The translations under genes were made by a program, and so were the position numbers. Positions 14,621-44,335 of a stretch of 64,000 nt of DNA are shown piece after piece. The stretch is from a virus (taxonomy: Duplodnaviria > Caudoviricetes), in the IMG/VR virus record IMGVR_UViG_3300038312_000327, positions 11,782-75,781 of that record, one strand, 5' to 3'. The notes under the pieces were generated by a model. It ran no database searches. It saw only the letters and a list, made by a program, of their open reading frames with translations, and was not told the origin of the DNA. Each line of letters opens with the position of its first letter. Position 1 is the first letter of the stretch.

Positions 14621-16087
14621 ATGACCATTGATGAAATATTAGCATTACAGGACTTTAAACAAGCTATCGATATTTTAACAAAAGACTCGAAGGAGGATCG
14701 AAATCGTGAAGAATATCTTAAAGAATTTAAAGGCGAAAGAAGCCGTCGTCCAGGAAGTGTTGACAAGCGAGAAGACAAGTCGGTCGAAATGTATTCTGAA
14801 ACCGAAACGGAGATTGATAAAAACGGAGAAGAAGTTCCTAAAAGTCTTGGAAAAAAGTCTGTACCGGTTGCACGTGTAAAAACCAATACACCAAAACGCA
14901 TTGTCCGTATTGCAGCTGCTTTCCTGTTTGGAGGAGAGATGAATATTTCCTTTGCCGAGGATAGTGAGGGATCACAATTTTTCAAGGAAGTATTCGAGGA
15001 TAAATTGAAAATGAAATCATTTTTCAATCAATTTGCTCGAGTTGTTAAAACTGAGACAAAAGGCGCTATCGTGTTTTATCCCCGTCCAGGCGTTGATGTT
15101 GATGGAAAGCAAATTTTGGAGGTAAAAGCAAAGATCCTGTCTTCAAAAAATGGCGACTTCTTCCCGCACTTCGACGATTTCGGTGACATGGATGCTTTCA
15201 CCAGGAAGTATAAATCTATCTACTCAGAGGACGGAAAAGAGCATGATTTTATTTGGATTCAAACAGCTGCGCAGGAATTTCTATATGTCGACGTATCCGG
15301 AACCTGGCAACTTGTAGAAAAGTATCCTCAAAAAAACCTTGCAGGCAAGATAACAGTAGTATATGCAGAACAGGACCAGCCGGAATGGGAGGATGTAACC
15401 ACTTTGATGGATTACTACGAAAACAGGTTGAGCCGCATGGTTGATACCAACGACTACTTTGGCGACCCTATTTTAAAAAATTACGGTGAAAGCTCGTTGC
15501 CGTCGAAAAACACTGTAGGTAAACAGATTTCATATCCTGTCAAAATAGATCCCGATACTGGGAAAGAGTATCATGGTGATGCTGATTACCTCGTTTGGCA
15601 GCAATCAATCGACAGCATCAAGCTGGAATTGGAGACTTTAAGAAATGAAATATATGCCGGATCTTCGACGCCGGATTTGAGCTTTGAAAACATGAAAAGT
15701 ATCGGAGCATTATCCGGTACCGCAATTGAATTAATGTTTATTGAGGCGTTCATCAAGGCCGCTGAAGGGATGGAGATATTCGGGCCTGTTGTGCAAAGAT
15801 CTGTATCTGTTGTTCGCGCATTGATTTCTAATGTGACCAACACCAAGTACAAAAACGACCTGATCAAAGCTAATCCGAAAGTAACATTTGGCTCAGTACT
15901 TCCAGATGATTTGAAAGAAATTGTTGAAGTCCTTACCAAAGCAAATGGAGATAAGCCAATCAATAGTCAAGAAACAATTGTTGGCCGATCACCTTTCACT
16001 AAAGATGTGGGAGAAGAAGTTAAGCGCCTAAAAGCAGAGGCGGATGAGGATAGTCAACGTAATGTTATAACCGGATTTTCAGTATAA
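14621..16087 (+). CDS. Portal protein (SPP1 gp6-like)
   Basis: 488 aa; GSSTPDLSFENMKSIGALSGTAIELMF motif; precedes head morphogenesis gene. Confidence 0.9.
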   Translation: MTIDEILALQDFKQAIDILTKDSKEDRNREEYLKEFKGERSRRPGSVDKREDKSVEMYSETETEIDKNGEEVPKSLGKKSVPVARVKTNTPKRIVRIAAAFLFGGEMNISFAEDSEGSQFFKEVFEDKLKMKSFFNQFARVVKTETKGAIVFYPRPGVDVDGKQILEVKAKILSSKNGDFFPHFDDFGDMDAFTRKYKSIYSEDGKEHDFIWIQTAAQEFLYVDVSGTWQLVEKYPQKNLAGKITVVYAEQDQPEWEDVTTLMDYYENRLSRMVDTNDYFGDPILKNYGESSLPSKNTVGKQISYPVKIDPDTGKEYHGDADYLVWQQSIDSIKLELETLRNEIYAGSSTPDLSFENMKSIGALSGTAIELMFIEAFIKAAEGMEIFGPVVQRSVSVVRALISNVTNTKYKNDLIKANPKVTFGSVLPDDLKEIVEVLTKANGDKPINSQETIVGRSPFTKDVGEEVKRLKAEADEDSQRNVITGFSV

Positions 16088-16089
16088 TA

Positions 16090-17760
16090 ATGCCGTCCTT
16101 ATTATCATTTCACGACCAGCAGCATATTACCCGTATGTTTGTCCAGGAACAGCGGGTAAATATGATATTTAACCAGTTCGTTTCTTCCATTGCACCCGAA
16201 ATGCGAAAATGGAAAGATGCCGGCAATAAAAACAGCGTGTGGGTTCGCAATCCGGGCATTGAAAAAGCTATCGATAAATACCTGGTCCAGCTGCAATCCA
16301 ATCTCGAAAAAGAAATCAAATCCGGGCAAACGAAAGCCTGGAATGAGGCGGTCCTGAAGAATGATAAAATGGTAGAGAGCTATATCAAAGGAATGTCACT
16401 TTCTACTATTGTCAAGGAAGGGTTGTTCAGACGCAACCTTGATGCTCTCGAATTGCTTCAAAACAGGACCGAAAACGGGTTAAATATTTCGCAGCGTGTA
16501 TGGAATATTGCAGACCAGACAAAAGGCCATGTGGAACTATTCCTTGAAGGTGGTATTTCTACCGGTAGGAGCGCAGACCAGATCAGCCGGGATTTCAGGC
16601 AACTGTTACAAAATCCAGAGAAGCGTTTCCGACGAGTACGCAATAAAGAGGGCAAGCTTGTAATGTCCAAGCCGATGAAAGACTATCATCCCGGCCCGGG
16701 AGTCTACAGAAGTTCAAAGATGAACGCCATCCGTGTATCGGCTACCGAAACAAATATGGGATACCGGTTGAGTGATTCGGAGCGATGGAAGCAGCTTGAT
16801 TTCGTGTTAGGATTTGAGGTAAAGCGTTCCCGGAATGGTCATCCGTGCGCAATATGTGATGCGTTGGTGGGTAAATATCCGAAAGATTTTGTTTTCCCCG
16901 GATGGCACCCTTTCTGCATATGTATTGCTGTTCCAATTGTGATGGAGCATGAAGATTTTGCGGATTTTCTTTTGACTGATCAAATTCCTGAAAATAAATA
17001 TGTAAAAGATATACCAGGTAAAGCACGGGAATGGATGGATGGCTATATCAAAAAGACCGGAAGTGTGCCATATTTCGTGAAACTAAATGCAAAGTGGCCT
17101 CATGATAAAAACAATCCATCGATTTTATCGAAAGTGCAGAAAGGACAAGAAGCAAATAAAATAGCAGATTTTGGAATAACATCAATAATAAAACCAGAAA
17201 ATGAAAGGACGCTAATTCAAGCAAAATGGGATGAGCAAAAATTATATAACGAAATAAGGAAAACAGAAGACGAAATCAGGATGAATAAAAAATTTGAAAC
17301 TGCGGTAGCTTTTGATACATCAGGGAATATCGTTTTGGATAAGCGAGGAGAAGCTTCTTTCGTACAATTAAACGGCACCGACATGGATAGGCTAAAAGAT
17401 ACAGTATTTACTCATAATCACCCGAGAGGATGGGGTTATCCTGAAAAATCGTTGGGTAGAATAGGAAATTCGTTTAGCTCCCAAGATATATATACTGCAA
17501 TAAAGGCAAATGTTCAGGAAATGCGAGCCGTAACTCCACATTATACATTCTCGATGAAAAGACCGGAGAGCGGATGGGGCGATATTAACAGCGTTAGGAA
17601 TATTATCGAAAGTGAAAATAATAAACTAAGCAATGAAATGTGGAAAGGAATAAATAGTGGCATATTTAAACCGGAAAGGGCCTCTGCTATTCATTTTCAT
17701 ATACTCTGGAAGCGGGTAAGCAAAAAAATGAATTGGAATTATTCAAAATCGAAAACTTGA
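16090..17760 (+). CDS. Head morphogenesis (MuF/gp7) protein with C-terminal JAB/MPN-like toxin domain
   Basis: MuF motif CAICD...GWHPFCICI; C-terminal E...THNHP...SFSSQD JAMM-type motif. Confidence 0.8.
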   Translation: MPSLLSFHDQQHITRMFVQEQRVNMIFNQFVSSIAPEMRKWKDAGNKNSVWVRNPGIEKAIDKYLVQLQSNLEKEIKSGQTKAWNEAVLKNDKMVESYIKGMSLSTIVKEGLFRRNLDALELLQNRTENGLNISQRVWNIADQTKGHVELFLEGGISTGRSADQISRDFRQLLQNPEKRFRRVRNKEGKLVMSKPMKDYHPGPGVYRSSKMNAIRVSATETNMGYRLSDSERWKQLDFVLGFEVKRSRNGHPCAICDALVGKYPKDFVFPGWHPFCICIAVPIVMEHEDFADFLLTDQIPENKYVKDIPGKAREWMDGYIKKTGSVPYFVKLNAKWPHDKNNPSILSKVQKGQEANKIADFGITSIIKPENERTLIQAKWDEQKLYNEIRKTEDEIRMNKKFETAVAFDTSGNIVLDKRGEASFVQLNGTDMDRLKDTVFTHNHPRGWGYPEKSLGRIGNSFSSQDIYTAIKANVQEMRAVTPHYTFSMKRPESGWGDINSVRNIIESENNKLSNEMWKGINSGIFKPERASAIHFHILWKRVSKKMNWNYSKSKT

Positions 17761-18293: not shown

Positions 18294-18526
18294 TTTGAGC
18301 CTCCTTCCATCTTTGGGAGTGGTGAATCGAAATATAACTCGTTCCAGTGTTCATTACCTATTAATGCTGAAATATGTCCCGCCGTATCATCAAGATTGGT
18401 CTCAATTTCATCAACATGCTTTTCCAGTGAAACATCCGACAATTTTATAGATGATGCATATTTCAAGTAGCAAGCCTTTATCGCTTTCAATTGCTTAAGG
18501 TGCTCAATCATTGCCTCAGTATTCAT
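18290..18526 (-). CDS. Hypothetical protein, antirepressor operon (probable start MNTEAM)
   Basis: Coupled ORF, helical. Confidence 0.55.
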   Translation of the reverse strand: MNTEAMIEHLKQLKAIKACYLKYASSIKLSDVSLEKHVDEIETNLDDTAGHISALIGNEHWNELYFDSPLPKMEGGSK

Positions 18527-18684
18527 AATTTGCCTCCTTTCGCATTTACCATTTCCATGCACATGTTGCGGAAAAAAGAATCTAGTGAGCTGATGAATCT
18601 GTCAGGATCTGCGATATGACGTCCGGCAAGTTCAAAAATCCCTTTGGCGTCACTGACCATGGTTATCTTGGTTTTGCTTTTCAT
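18523..18684 (-). CDS. Hypothetical protein, antirepressor operon (probable start MKSKTK)
   Basis: ATGA-type overlap with antirepressor stop. Confidence 0.5.
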   Translation of the reverse strand: MKSKTKITMVSDAKGIFELAGRHIADPDRFISSLDSFFRNMCMEMVNAKGGKL

Positions 18685-19523
18685 ATCCGGCCCCCTTTCC
18701 GCAATTGGTGAAGAAAAGCTCGACCTTTCTCGGTCCAAACCATCGATTGTTGCGTTTCAACATTACCTGTATGACGATTAACATATCTTGAAACACGCAT
18801 ATCTGTATAGTCCTTATCCTGATATTTTGAATAAAGAAACCACTGACCAGATTGAAAAAATTGAATCCCCGCTTCTTTAAGTTTCTTGTTTAAGGTTTTT
18901 GCACTCAAACCAAAATCTTTTGCTATTTGTGTTGTAGTGAATGTAGATGTTGATTGCAAAACCTCGTCAGTATATTCAGCTTTTGGAACTAAAACTTTGA
19001 TTTCTTCTTTCTGAATTTCATTTTCTCCCTGAAGTATCTGGATTGCTTGTTTGTGTCTCTCCAAAGTTCTTTGAGCAACTTGTAATGCACGAGCCATTAT
19101 TAAATCTGAAGATTCAAAATCAAGAGCAACATTACCGGTTGTCATTAATATTTTTATCTGGTCATTTGTCCAGATAGCGAATGCCGGGGATAGCCAGCGA
19201 GCAAACTCGATGGCAACGTCTTCATGGAACCATGTACCTGGATTTGCACCACCTGCCTGAGTTTTAACTAATTTCTCAAAGTGTGATTTTCTCACTTTGC
19301 TTAATTCTTCAAGAAATGTTTTAGATGTGGGCAATCTTAACCAGTCAACTGGTCGTTTCCCAAATGTTTTTGCCATCTGTGTGGCATTTACCATAACATC
19401 GTCACCTTTAGAAAAAGTAACTTTTGAGCCTTCATAGGTTAAAACAATGCTCGTTTCGTGAGCGGACGTACTTCGACTGTTACTATTGTTCGCAATCGTC
19501 GCAATGTTTGTGTTGTTAAGCAT
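18681..19523 (-). CDS. Phage antirepressor (KilA-N + ANT/KilAC)
   Basis: VMVNATQMAK...GTWFHEDVAIEFARWLSP (KilA-N); STFTTTQIAK...WTEKGRAFL (ANT). Confidence 0.9.
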   Translation of the reverse strand: MLNNTNIATIANNSNSRSTSAHETSIVLTYEGSKVTFSKGDDVMVNATQMAKTFGKRPVDWLRLPTSKTFLEELSKVRKSHFEKLVKTQAGGANPGTWFHEDVAIEFARWLSPAFAIWTNDQIKILMTTGNVALDFESSDLIMARALQVAQRTLERHKQAIQILQGENEIQKEEIKVLVPKAEYTDEVLQSTSTFTTTQIAKDFGLSAKTLNKKLKEAGIQFFQSGQWFLYSKYQDKDYTDMRVSRYVNRHTGNVETQQSMVWTEKGRAFLHQLRKGGRI

Positions 19524-19565
19524 TTACACAAAATTTTAATAAGTAACGATTTTGAGAAGTGTGGA

Positions 19566-19653
19566 AATAAAAAGAGCGATCCTGCACTTCCCGTTGCTTA
19601 ACACCTCAAGGGCTGCGGGGCCATTAAGCCTCCACACGGGGTTACAGAATCGC
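19566..19653 (-). ncRNA. Putative structured RNA in antirepressor leader (P4 CI/P1 C4-like architecture)
   Basis: Outer stem GCGATTCTGTA/TGCAGGATCGC, CCCGT/ACGGG stem, inner hairpin, exposed loop CCCTTGAGGTGTTAAGCA, then U-tract. Confidence 0.6.
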
Positions 19654-19761
19654 AATTAAATTTTGACGTAATAACTATTTAAAACAAAAACAGCCCGCCA
19701 ATATGGTGAGCCGAACGCCTTGCAATTCTAATATTCTCACCCTTGAGTATGTTAAGCGTTA

Positions 19762-19792
19762 CAAATATCAGAATATTTTTTTAATCTACAAA
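19762..19792 (-). promoter_or_regulatory. Bacteroidota-type promoter of antirepressor leader
   Basis: TTTG-N19-GATATTTG (consensus TTTG-N19-21-TAnnTTTG, one mismatch). Confidence 0.6.
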
Positions 19793-19827
19793 ATAAAAAT
19801 GACTATTTTTGCGAAAAACATAATATC

Positions 19828-20280
19828 ATGGGATTATTTTTCAATAACTACGAAAAAAAGCGGAAGCAGGCTATCGCGAAAGTGGAATTTCCGAGACATA
19901 AAAGGATTTTAGAGGATAGTATCAGTCTGATCAAATCAACCCAGAATTTAAGCACATTGATAAACCGGCATGAAATAGCACAAGAGGAATATTCGTGGAT
20001 AAAAAGCCAAATGAATGCCGGTGTCCCGATTTACTTCAAATCTAACGGGTATTTTCCTGCCGAATTGAAGGAGTACGCAAATGTAAATATAGTCCGGATC
20101 GCAGATGCCGAATACGCAAAGTATGCAGCGAAAAAGGGAACATTGAAAACCGATAAAGCGAAAGAAAATCTACACGATAAATATACGAATGTTTTAAATG
20201 ATTGCTTATTTGCTTTACTTACCGCTAAAAACCAAAAAGAATGTATCTCTGAAATTGCAGGGCTAATTACTAAACTATAA
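19828..20280 (+). CDS. Hypothetical protein (cargo gene)
   Basis: 150 aa; own TATTTTTG promoter at 19804-19811 and terminator at 20303-20332. Confidence 0.7.
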   Translation: MGLFFNNYEKKRKQAIAKVEFPRHKRILEDSISLIKSTQNLSTLINRHEIAQEEYSWIKSQMNAGVPIYFKSNGYFPAELKEYANVNIVRIADAEYAKYAAKKGTLKTDKAKENLHDKYTNVLNDCLFALLTAKNQKECISEIAGLITKL

Positions 20281-20302
20281 AAAAATAGCCGAAAAATTAC
20301 GT

Positions 20303-20332
20303 AGAGCCGGATCATTATGATCCGGCTCTTTT
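20303..20332 (+). terminator. Intrinsic terminator
   Basis: AGAGCCGGATCAT/ATGATCCGGCTCT hairpin + T-tract. Confidence 0.8.
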
Positions 20333-20483
20333 ATGGGCGTGCAGGGAAACCTGAAAACTTCGAAAAAAGAGATTAAGCGATGATGTGCTTTCAAAGCACC
20401 CCATATAGATCACGAACCCTTACTGCTAATAACCCATCAAAAGAACAACCGCGTAACTCTAAGTTACCCCCTTCCGCAGGCAA

Positions 20484-22405
20484 ATCGAGTAGGAGGAAAA
20501 CGAAGTAGTTTTCTTCCTACTTTCGTTTTCCGACCTCTCACACCACCGTACGTACGGTTCTCGTATACGGCGGTTCCTTAACATTTCACTCTAACCGTTT
20601 TATAATAATCCGAGAAGAAAACGTAACCGGCTTTTCTTAAACGCTCGTCAGTAACTGTTCGGCTAAGGATAAAACTATTGGCTACATGCCAATAGCCCTT
20701 TCTGGTATTTGCCCACTCATATGCCTTGTATCTGTTGATACCCAGCTTAACAAGATTAGCTACCTTGGTTCTGATCCGTTTCCATTGTTTCCATATCACC
20801 ATACGTAGCCTTCGACGCAACCAGGCATCCGTTGTTGTGAGTAACGTTTTAATGTCTGCCAGTTTGAAGTACTGCACCCAACCTGTTATATACTGGTTTA
20901 GTGCTGTCTTCCTGCACTCATTCCCCCATCCGTTGCTTCGGGATGTAAGTTCTCTAATTCGAGCTTTCATCTTTTCCACACTTTTGGAGTGAACCCTCAG
21001 CCTGCATTCTCCCTTGTATCGGTAAAAACTATAGCCAAGGAATTGGATATCCCTGATGTAGGCAACTTTCGTTTTGTTACGATTGACTTTCAGGAAGAGT
21101 TTCTTCTCAATGAACGAGATAATGCTCTCCATCACTCTTTCGGCACTTCGCCTACTCTTGCACAGTATTACCAGATCATCCGCATAGCGAACGAACTTGT
21201 GTCCCCGTTTTTCGAGTTCCCTGTCCAGCTCACCCAGAAGGATATTTCCCAAAAGAGGACTTAATGGTCCTCCTTGCGGAACTCCCTCATGGCTCTCTTC
21301 GAAACAGACTCCATCTTTCACTCCTGCATTGAGATACTTATGTATAAGTGAAACCACTCTCCCGTCCTTGATAGTACGGGATAAGACCTCTATCAGTTTG
21401 TTATGATGTACGGTATCGAAGAAACGCTCCAGATCCATATCTACGGCGTAGATGTAACCCTCGTTGATATACTGTTGACATTTTCTGAGGGCTCCGTGTG
21501 TTGAGCGTCTGGGACGGAACCCATAGCTATGGTCACTGAATTCAGGTTCATAGACCTGAGACAGCTTCTGTGCAATGCCCTGCTGGATAACCCGATCTAC
21601 TACTGTGGGGATACCCAGCTGGCGCTGCTTCCCGTCTTCTTTGGGGATGTATACCCTTCGTGTCGGATTGGGGCGATACTTGCCCCCCAGAATGGACCCG
21701 ATCAATACATCCTTGTTCCCGACAAGATAATCTTTCAATGATTCAACCTCCATCTTGTCTATACCTGCTGCGCCATGGTTGCTCTTTACCCGTTTGTAGG
21801 CAGCGTTAAGGTTGGAAGGTGAAAGGATGTCTTCCAGCAATCCATTCTCTTTACGGTGTTCATGTCCGGTGAGGTTGTTTTCAGTTATCCATAGGAAAGT
21901 CTGCCCTGTCGCATGGCTTTCGGATGCCGTCCTATTATTCTGCGCTACAGGTCTCTGATATATAGAGATTTTCTGCTTTCGTCCTTTCATAACGGTAACT
22001 TTCATTGACTGCTCGACCATTAAGGTTCAGCCCTTCCCATATCCGGTCGTGATGTGGTACTATGGCTTCTGCTGACTTCTCACGATGAACTTGTTTTGAC
22101 CATGCTTCATACTCCGTTTCCGCATGTTCGTGAGACCTCCCGCGGTAAGGCAGTTAACTTTCATTCCATGTCCCCGCCATATTTACACCCCGACGTCCGT
22201 GTAATCTTTGGACTTTGACTTGTTTTGCAGTCTCGTCCCGACGGGTATGCCTGATATGATTCGTGTCCCTCGGGGCGGAACTTTGCCTTAAGCTTCCTTC
22301 AGATTCCGCTTCGCAACGGACACCCTTGCCCTCGGCTAATGGTTGGCGATCACAAACCCCCATAGTGGACTTTCACCACCAAGTTAACTGCCATGCACGG
22401 CACAC
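20484..22405 (-). mobile_element. Group II intron, bacterial class C (IIC)
   Basis: 5' GTGTGCCG at 22405; domain V GAACCGCCGTATACG...CGTACGTACGGTGGTGTGAGAGG with CGC triad; 3' end CCTACTCGAT at 20484; inserted just after a hairpin + T-tract. Confidence 0.93.
20578..22020 (-). CDS. ltrA: Group II intron reverse transcriptase/maturase (no En domain; real start probably MKGRKQK at 21990)
   Basis: RQLGIPTVVDR, GVPQGGPLSPLL, FVRYADD motifs; maturase X domain. Confidence 0.95.
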   Translation of the reverse strand: MVEQSMKVTVMKGRKQKISIYQRPVAQNNRTASESHATGQTFLWITENNLTGHEHRKENGLLEDILSPSNLNAAYKRVKSNHGAAGIDKMEVESLKDYLVGNKDVLIGSILGGKYRPNPTRRVYIPKEDGKQRQLGIPTVVDRVIQQGIAQKLSQVYEPEFSDHSYGFRPRRSTHGALRKCQQYINEGYIYAVDMDLERFFDTVHHNKLIEVLSRTIKDGRVVSLIHKYLNAGVKDGVCFEESHEGVPQGGPLSPLLGNILLGELDRELEKRGHKFVRYADDLVILCKSRRSAERVMESIISFIEKKLFLKVNRNKTKVAYIRDIQFLGYSFYRYKGECRLRVHSKSVEKMKARIRELTSRSNGWGNECRKTALNQYITGWVQYFKLADIKTLLTTTDAWLRRRLRMVIWKQWKRIRTKVANLVKLGINRYKAYEWANTRKGYWHVANSFILSRTVTDERLRKAGYVFFSDYYKTVRVKC

Positions 22406-42274: not shown

Positions 42275-42378
42275 AATTATACAACTGTTAAAATTGAGTT
42301 ATAAAGCGAGTTGGATTTTGTATGCTTAACACCTCGACAACGCTTTGCCGGGCTGTTGTTTAATTATTGAATTTTAAG

Positions 42379-43615: not shown

Positions 43616-44335
43616 ATGTCTATAAATCAAGAACTAAAAAAGATCATATCTGAAATAAAATACAATTTCGAGATAAATCAAGCTGAGATAGCTGATAAAC
43701 TAGAGGTTACGCCTACTTATTTATCAGATATGATTAACGGTAGAGTTCCCTTTTCAGACAGTATAAAGATCAAAATATATGAAGTTTTCAAAATAGATAT
43801 CAGAGAAAATACGAACAATCTTCTTATTGACGAATTAAACTACGATTTGATCGATACCGAAGAAAAATACAAAAAAGCTATTGCGGCTGGTTTAAAGATG
43901 TTACCTGAAGTAGATTTTATATTTTCAGCTGGTCAAAAGGCATTGACAGCTAATACAGATACAACGGTTAGATTTTGGCACTTGCCAGATTGTGAGGATT
44001 GTGAAGCAATTGCAAGAATGGCTGGAAATTCAATGATGCCGACCTTACCTCCTGGATGTCAGTTGGCATTAAAAAGATATGGATATGACATTACCAGGCC
44101 AAACACTATCGCATTTGGTAATATGTACGGAATAGTTGTAGAGGACCCATCGACGGGCCTATGGCATGGACATATTAAAGTGTTGAGACGTCATAGAGAT
44201 CCTGAATTGGCAAAGAAGTACTGGATTGCTCATTCGATAAATACAGCTGAGTATGATGATTTCGATATTGATTTAACCTTGGTGCGCGGATTGTGGGTTG
44301 TAAAACAGCATGTGGTTACAAACGTATTATTATAG
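43616..44335 (+). CDS. CI-like repressor (HTH + S24 peptidase)
   Basis: NQAEIADKLEVTPTYLSDMING; GNSMMP catalytic Ser region. Confidence 0.88.
   Translation: MSINQELKKIISEIKYNFEINQAEIADKLEVTPTYLSDMINGRVPFSDSIKIKIYEVFKIDIRENTNNLLIDELNYDLIDTEEKYKKAIAAGLKMLPEVDFIFSAGQKALTANTDTTVRFWHLPDCEDCEAIARMAGNSMMPTLPPGCQLALKRYGYDITRPNTIAFGNMYGIVVEDPSTGLWHGHIKVLRRHRDPELAKKYWIAHSINTAEYDDFDIDLTLVRGLWVVKQHVVTNVLL

Follow-up and report, generated by a model that had tools for sequence, protein, structure and literature searches.

The antirepressor gene ant of a temperate gut-Bacteroidales phage is preceded by a folded RNA leader carrying three matched boxes, A, B and C, and this leader belongs to a family of related units spread through the Bacteroidales. 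Our data suggest that it is a three-box antisense-RNA cassette resembling P4 CI and P1 c4, which would keep Ant off at the level of the sense-strand RNA. From the sequence comparisons and the analogy with P4 and P1, we give this reading a probability of roughly two in three. The anatomy of the leader, its conservation, the covariation among its relatives and a strand-specific wobble are observed directly.

The phage and the surroundings of ant

The window analyzed here is a stretch of 64,000 nucleotides, corresponding to bases 11782-75781 of a 75.8-kb IMG/VR phage that is complete according to CheckV. The phage is temperate. Its tyrosine integrase, of the Bacteroidetes type, is encoded at L082 285-1508, and a CI-like HTH repressor, which an antirepressor could target, at 43616-44335 on the plus strand. 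The repressor gene faces a divergent early operon on the minus strand, which contains a Cro-like gene, a GerE-type regulator and RecT. The ant gene (18681-19523, minus strand) encodes a 280-aa antirepressor with KilA-N and ANT domains (Pfam KilA-N, 2.2e-21; ANT, 2.3e-25), which falls into PHROG 63 (anti-repressor Ant).

The ant cassette sits in a minus-strand insert, with portal and MuF head genes (14621-17760) on one side and capsid genes (from 22793) on the other. The insert contains ant, its 270-nt leader, a divergent 150-aa gene without a family match and a group II intron. The divergent open reading frame (19828-20280, plus strand) lies upstream of the ant promoter, with its start 35 nt from the -33 box, and neither Pfam nor PHROG gave a match for it. 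The prophage encoding the closest Ant homologue (L002) likewise has a divergent open reading frame at this position, of unrelated sequence. The group II intron (20484-22020, minus strand) lies just upstream of the cassette, within the structural-gene region, and consists of an RT/maturase open reading frame (RVT_1 and GIIM domains) and domains V/VI (Rfam Intron_gpII, 43 bits).

Anatomy of the ant leader

All elements of the leader lie on the minus strand. Upon re-reading the sequence, we confirmed the positions that an earlier note on this DNA had given for the promoter, A, a hairpin with a U-tract, the core, B and C. The Bacteroidetes-type promoter (19762-19792) is composed of a -33 TTTG (19792-19789), a 19-nt spacer and a -7 box (19769-19762). 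Box A (19740-19757) lies at, or immediately beside, the 5' end predicted for the transcript; in all 20 representative homologues an xAnnTTTG box was found 3-4 nt upstream of it. The minimum-energy fold of the free leader contains a hairpin, H1 (19705-19741), which shares bases with its neighbours on both sides: the 3' end of A extends into its 5' arm (19741-19736), and the 5' arm of a second hairpin, T1, runs into its 3' arm (19710-19705). An equivalent of H1 adjoins A in nearly all homologues. T1 (19681-19713) is a terminator-like attenuator between A and the core RNA, with a 9-bp stem (one mismatch) followed by U5GU4.

The core RNA (19565-19653, about 90 nt) consists of three helices and a final U-run. 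The RNAalifold consensus places the closing stem P1 at 19653-19643 with 19586-19576, the 4-bp helix P2 at 19640-19637 with 19593-19590, and the hairpin P3 at 19635-19615 with a UAAU loop. The U-run, T2 (19575-19565), was read from the sequence. Box B, an 18-nt variable "address" (19595-19612), occupies the unpaired stretch that separates P3 from the 3' strand of P2, and box C (19514-19523) comprises the ant start codon and 7 nt. The predicted core fold (-36.8 kcal/mol, z = -3.9) and the fold of the whole leader (-81.7 kcal/mol, z = -4.6) each beat every shuffle, and the minimum-energy structure of the whole leader contains an A:B helix.

The complementarity of B to both A and C in the window was also borne out. 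A and B form 8 + 7 Watson-Crick pairs flanking a small internal loop, or about 17 pairs overall, while 9 nt of C are exactly complementary to the 3' half of B. A search of the window with the 18-mer complement of B returned no other match at up to three mismatches; A itself was missed by this search because of its bulge. A scan for consensus promoters and terminators flagged neither T1 nor T2, and no conserved internal promoter for the core RNA was visible. Any B RNA must therefore derive from transcripts that read through T1.

A family of related leaders in Bacteroidales

The closest Ant homologue (53% identity) is encoded by the Proteiniphilum prophage L002, whose leader is laid out alike, although the letters of A, B and C differ. 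Conservation between the two phages extends to the promoter region, and Proteiniphilum acetatigenes DSM 18083 (L039) carries a core identical to that of L002. By BLAST, L002 was alone among 19 Ant-homologue loci in IMG/VR in sharing the leader; what lies upstream of most Ant genes is different. The phage collection contained no BLASTN match to the leader.

The window (19669-19686, minus strand) and L002 (approximately 2866-2883) share an identical run of 18 nt, located between T1 and the core and missing from the other relatives. This run might be bound by a protein or might signal processing.

We recovered further relatives with a pattern search built on the conserved hairpin, such that P2 and parts of P3 were fixed by the pattern in the first 20 units. 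Core pattern matches came from 4 viral and 28 metagenome contigs and from 10 species genomes, the latter all Bacteroidales, yielding 20 distinct cores, that of the window included. A covariance model built from these 20 cores, R1, scored the window core at 85.4 bits and recovered more diverged copies, including second and third copies within single loci. The total rose to 33 distinct units from Bacteroidales phages, prophages and metagenomes. Looser DNA patterns matched by chance only, in high-GC phages (L025-L033).

Host genomes with the cassette include Bacteroides, Parabacteroides, Tannerella, Prevotellaceae, Rikenellaceae, Odoribacter, Proteiniphilum and Prolixibacteraceae. In samples of species genomes, R1 matched 4 of 150 other Bacteroidales and 0 of 150 genomes from the rest of the phylum; as these are samples, they do not prove absence. 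A diverged version with a weak R1 score (15.6 bits) is present in the group L010-L016. Here (L010 2470-3000, and L011-L016) the closing stem, the U-run and matched A, B and C boxes are kept and the inner hairpin differs.

Covariation within the core RNA

RNAalifold recovered P1, P2 and P3, with B unpaired, from a plain MAFFT alignment. For the 20 units aligned by MAFFT, 97.6% of cells were paired, with compensatory changes at 12 of 21 pairs. Once all 33 units had been fitted to the covariance model, 97.1% of cells were paired and compensatory changes were seen at 17 of the 21 pairs. None of 500 shuffles matched the covariation of the 33 units, and sliding the partner columns reduced pairing to 37-49%. 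P1, which was unconstrained by the search pattern, varies at all nine of its pairs. As judged from these alignments, the core fold is under selection. Since its helices covary, it must exist at times when A is absent, occupied or as yet unpaired.

B is the most variable segment of the alignment, yet it is complementary to its own A in every unit examined. A small open reading frame starting from an AUG in the P3 loop was also considered and dropped, as it has 8 codons in the window and the differences in length between B boxes are not multiples of three.

Matched boxes pair as sense-strand RNA

To each B belongs its own A. For all 20 units, the predicted energy of pairing between B and its own upstream region was -28 to -38 kcal/mol, and in every row the cognate A:B combination was the best of the 20 (mean -33.2 kcal/mol for cognate versus -18.4 for non-cognate combinations). 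The window B gave -28.1 kcal/mol against its own upstream region and -19 at best against the 19 foreign ones. In 11 further units, A and B paired likewise. Addresses differ in nearly all units and range from 18 to 25 nt in length.

Box C follows the same rule less strictly. An exact C complement of B (≥8 nt) was present in 15 of 20 units, compared with 6% of non-cognate pairs, and in these 15 it was located on the ATG or 3-4 nt before it. The B:C match was weak or absent in the other 5; it is 9 nt in the window. The leaders thus contain a regulator box complementary to both an upstream and a downstream site, the latter on the translation start.

Four near-identical scaffolds (L021, L035, L043 and L060) were found to carry different addresses, and in all of them B and C had changed jointly. 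A had changed as well, except in L035, where A retains the L021 sequence and its pairing with B is maintained by a G.U. The boxes therefore covary between relatives, as expected of heteroimmune specificities. Covariation of A, B and C in homologues had been named by the earlier note as a test of its RNA-switch proposal, and this test came out in favor of the proposal. Relatives do keep the arrangement, with the boxes covarying, and it exceeds chance.

The mismatches between A and B revealed the strand on which they meet. Comparison of A with the reverse complement of B gave 371 matches. Among the mismatches, 33 would be G.U wobbles on the sense RNA, and not one would be a wobble on the other strand. 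This split assigns the A:B pairing to the RNA level and the sense strand, and rules out a DNA-level repeat. It also argues against reading A, B and C as DNA operators of a phage-specific DNA-binding protein, with incidental RNA folds. Three related sequences near a promoter and a start codon, together with the promoter region conserved between the window and L002, are what such operators might look like. However, the tolerated bulges and the position of B inside an RNA fold with 17 covarying pairs do not suit operators. The sites are furthermore non-palindromic and change in nearly every unit without a linked DNA-binding gene, and we consider this explanation extremely improbable.

Two mutually exclusive folds

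In 19 of 20 units, the minimum-energy fold of the full leader contains the A:B helix, with P1 and P2 wholly absent. The core fold is less stable than the A:B fold by 0-15 kcal/mol. As the two folds cross, they are mutually exclusive in a nested structure, and a 20-bp helix within the closed junction would be sterically implausible.

Both U-runs also have alternative surroundings. The 3' strands of P2 and P1 can re-pair just downstream in 18 of 20 units, which places the T2 U-run in a loop, with energy z-scores that are mostly weak. T1 is flanked by an arrangement similar to this alternative hairpin, such that both U-runs can fall in loops. To see whether binding of B to A might trigger T1, nascent RNAs up to the U-run were folded with A either free or masked. 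A hairpin ending ≤2 nt from the first U-run was predicted for 13 of 19 members when A was free, and masking A raised this number to 16. In many members, the window included, T1 was predicted in either state.

Such paired alternatives could also belong to a purely cis-acting switch. The A:B fold would permit read-through with the start free, the core fold would end transcription at T2 with B masking C, and the signal might be a protein, an RNase, temperature or transcription speed; neither a trans-acting RNA nor immunity would be involved. The exclusive folds of 19 out of 20 leaders and the alternative hairpins that put both U-runs in loops agree with this scheme, as does the lack of a visible separate promoter for the core. 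Against this, the core pairs a covarying closing stem with a U-run, which is the build of a stand-alone small RNA like c4 or CI. Considering also the genomic evidence described below, we judge a switch confined to cis to be unlikely.

Genes behind the cassette

Ant lies directly behind the cassette in the window and in L002. In the L010 group, a 79-aa open reading frame intervenes between the RNA and the Ant homologue. Elsewhere the downstream gene is of another kind. Rha follows the cassette in L040, and SymE_toxin-domain proteins of 105-109 aa are encoded by the first open reading frame after the RNA in L034, L038, L064, L077 and L093, with C on the start codon. Many other units precede small open reading frames of unknown function. 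One unit (L041 4178-7850, minus strand) leads an operon with an ISL3-type transposase fragment and a Mu-type transposase (rve, Mu-transpos_C_2), and may front the early operon of a transposable prophage.

These varied downstream genes show that the cassette is not Ant-specific; it is a general front-end for phage genes that need silence. The earlier proposal that it gates an antirepressor is consistent with its position before ant in the window and is too narrow for the family, whose members also precede Rha, SymE-like genes, small unknown genes and a Mu-type transposase operon. That genes outside immunity occur behind the cassette speaks for the cis-acting switch.

The SymE loci look like a sense-strand version of type I toxin control. 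The target of the antisense RNA SymR covers the symE start codon, and C occupies the same place here. By extension, the cassette could be a module of the type I toxin-antitoxin sort, in which B RNA is the antitoxin that blocks a harmful product (Ant or a SymE-like protein) and stabilizes the element, rather than conferring lysis-lysogeny immunity. SymE_toxin-domain genes after the RNA in at least five loci speak for this idea. However, the window gene codes for a canonical KilA-N/ANT antirepressor and its phage has a CI-like repressor, and other units precede Rha or early operons. Moreover, the RNA is upstream on the same strand and is not a cis-antisense transcript, and the AbrB-fold SymE-like proteins may themselves be regulators. 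We therefore regard a toxin-antitoxin function as improbable.

The address elsewhere in the phage and in co-resident units

The address recurs in the phage beyond the ant leader. A 13-nt exact copy of the B complement (42323-42335, plus strand) is located in an intergenic gap of the minus-strand early operon and is a candidate trans partner. As the B complement is on the plus strand here, the early mRNA bears a second B-sense seed. A near-copy of the B complement with one extra C is found at genome positions 1690-1702 (L082), in the leader of a gene for an 869-aa DNA methylase.

A 17-mer beside the address copy is common to both sites (window 42302-42335, plus strand; L082 1616-1702, plus strand). 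In the methylase leader, this 17-mer is the 5' arm of a 15-bp terminator hairpin.

Recurrence of the address at two distant sites, as read from the sequence, fits action in trans. One of these sites is on the other strand, where cis pairing is impossible, which argues against the purely cis-acting switch. Two other phages were searched for extra address sites, with results that count against action in trans. The L002 phage (G006) has none, as the cis-acting switch would predict, and G007 contained one 13/14 address match inside a coding region, possibly by chance.

Several units may reside together. Three are clustered in L065 (1695-3722, minus strand), while two each are found in L024 (5603-6028, minus strand), L035 (4140-6234, plus strand) and L042 (17-5634, minus strand). 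Every unit examined in L024, L035 and L042 has its own promoter and a different address. Genomes hold up to 4 units, and co-resident addresses were distinct wherever read. Such distinctness matters mainly if the RNAs meet in trans, and it too is at odds with regulation restricted to cis.

The early-operon and methylase-leader sites could be linked by an RNA-RNA network with a single address. In its widest form, a trans-pairing RNA code would comprise the 13-nt seed in the ant leader and early mRNA and its complement in the methylase leader. Such a code would coordinate the antirepressor operon with the early and rightward ones, and proteins would have little or no part in it. The family as a whole would then be a programmable, rapidly re-addressed immunity or exclusion system that decides which co-resident prophages induce. 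We offer this extension tentatively and consider it rather unlikely.

Proposed mechanism and its implications

Our preferred model, an antisense-RNA cassette resembling P4 CI and P1 c4, could operate as follows. Transcription would begin at box A. Once past the attenuator hairpin T1, the core of about 90 nt would fold into P1, P2 and P3, end in T2 and display the 18-nt B. Two partners would then be open to B: A, through about 17 pairs, and C on the ant start codon. If P4 CI and P1 c4 are a guide, transcripts terminated or processed at T2 would supply a stable B RNA.

In a lysogen, this B RNA would bind A and C of new transcripts. With A occupied, the nascent core would be able to fold, and T2 (perhaps also T1) would halt transcription. 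Any ant mRNA that was read through would have its start codon masked by B RNA, such that Ant would remain off and leave the CI-like repressor unharmed. Where no B RNA is present beforehand, A would pair with B in cis, which is thermodynamically preferred and excludes P1 and P2. The A:B helix in cis would thus be the "on" fold, in which the terminator fold is lost, C is free and Ant is made. A phage-specific address would give each phage its own specificity. The ends of the RNA, its processing, its action in trans, the direction of regulation and the immunity phenotype are all modeled here on the better-known phages, and the same goes for the processed small RNA and the second immunity layer proposed by the earlier note.

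Almost nothing is known about lysogeny, immunity and induction in the temperate phages of the dominant gut Bacteroidales. The cassette is a compact, sequence-programmable RNA lock, and genomes often carry more than one orthogonal copy of it. Should it act as P4 CI or P1 c4 do, RNA-based immunity would have arisen or persisted far outside the Proteobacteria, in a structurally different RNA, and the address would explain heteroimmunity among gut prophages. It would also provide an orthogonal, re-addressable repressor part for Bacteroides genetics. As the closest Ant-linked relative has a cultured host (Proteiniphilum acetatigenes DSM 18083), the idea is directly testable.

Comparison with known systems

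The control logic of the cassette is known, while an RNA family with a single long address is uncatalogued. An Rfam search had also been proposed by the earlier note as a test, and no family in Rfam 15 matched the core, be it that of the window or those of 14 homologous loci (E ≤ 1). Neither C4 (RF01695) nor c4-a1b1 matched the minus strand at 19500-19800 when 18500-21000 was scanned with cmscan (E ≤ 10). Literature searches, including those for a Bacteroidales equivalent, found no description of this RNA family.

A catalogued motif for comparison is c4-2 (RF02944; Weinberg et al. 2017), which the paper introducing it regards as probably related, distantly, to an RNA described earlier (PMC5737381). 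It occurs in Bacteroidales, has a closing stem and a U-run, and is related to c4 by name. In contrast to the new core, its interior has two small hairpins rather than P2 and P3 with a long unpaired address. RF02944 (gathering score 41 bits) had no match in the whole phage (E ≤ 10) and none at the R1 sites of G001-G005. The remark in the earlier note that it knew of no described Bacteroidota equivalent needs qualification in that c4-2, albeit a different family, is present in Bacteroidales. A true c4-2 copy (58.4 bits) was identified at L094 1501-1577 in a Tannerella MAG (G004). This MAG also holds two units of the new family, such that both RNA families coexist in it.

FopS and GibS, small RNAs of Bacteroides, are 65-70 nt long with a 5' seed and target susC-like mRNAs (PMC11697453). 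This type was ruled out for the core RNA, as size, seed position, targets and genomic context all differ.

SymR/SymE and P22 sar/ant resemble the cassette in the use of an antisense RNA that covers the start of translation, of symE in one case and ant in the other. In those systems the RNA comes from the strand opposite its target, whereas here regulator and targets share one strand.

A P4-like leader is also found in the Salmonella phage Gifsy-1 (IsrK / STnc1160 / orf45-anrP), where a short terminated 5' RNA coexists with a read-through form and alternative pairings expose or hide a start site (PMC4825925). By analogy, a T1-terminated "A RNA" could play an IsrK-like role in the ant leader. 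The Gifsy-1 system differs in that its short RNA activates translation, and it is proteobacterial and unrelated in sequence.

Another related system is the immI region of P1 and P7 (a1b1 - c4 - a2b2 - icd - ant). The work of Citron and Schuster (1990) and Biere et al. (1992) is said to have established c4 as a guard of the antirepressor, forming a second immunity layer and co-transcribed with its targets. The same studies reportedly found that specificity differs between heteroimmune phages. The regulator RNAs of P1 and P4 are processed from the leader by RNase P. The small open reading frame before ant in L010-L016 recalls icd. Unlike c4, which has two short boxes (a' and b'), the new RNA presents one contiguous address of 18-25 nt in a single-stranded joint.

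The P4 leader carries seqA, the CI RNA (seqB) and seqC, and the outcome is premature termination (PMC4825925). There is no similarity to the new family in sequence or by covariance model, and the hosts belong to another phylum. Here the promoters are of the Bacteroidetes type and Shine-Dalgarno logic is lacking; a terminator-like hairpin separates A from B, and the core itself ends in a U-run. Even so, the parallel that the earlier note had drawn holds, as the order of elements agrees with both seqA-CI(seqB)-seqC of P4 and a1b1-c4-a2b2 of P1. As in P4 immunity, one promoter serves boxes arranged target-regulator-target on the same transcript, the regulator is part of a folded leader RNA, and the downstream target overlaps the start region of the first gene.
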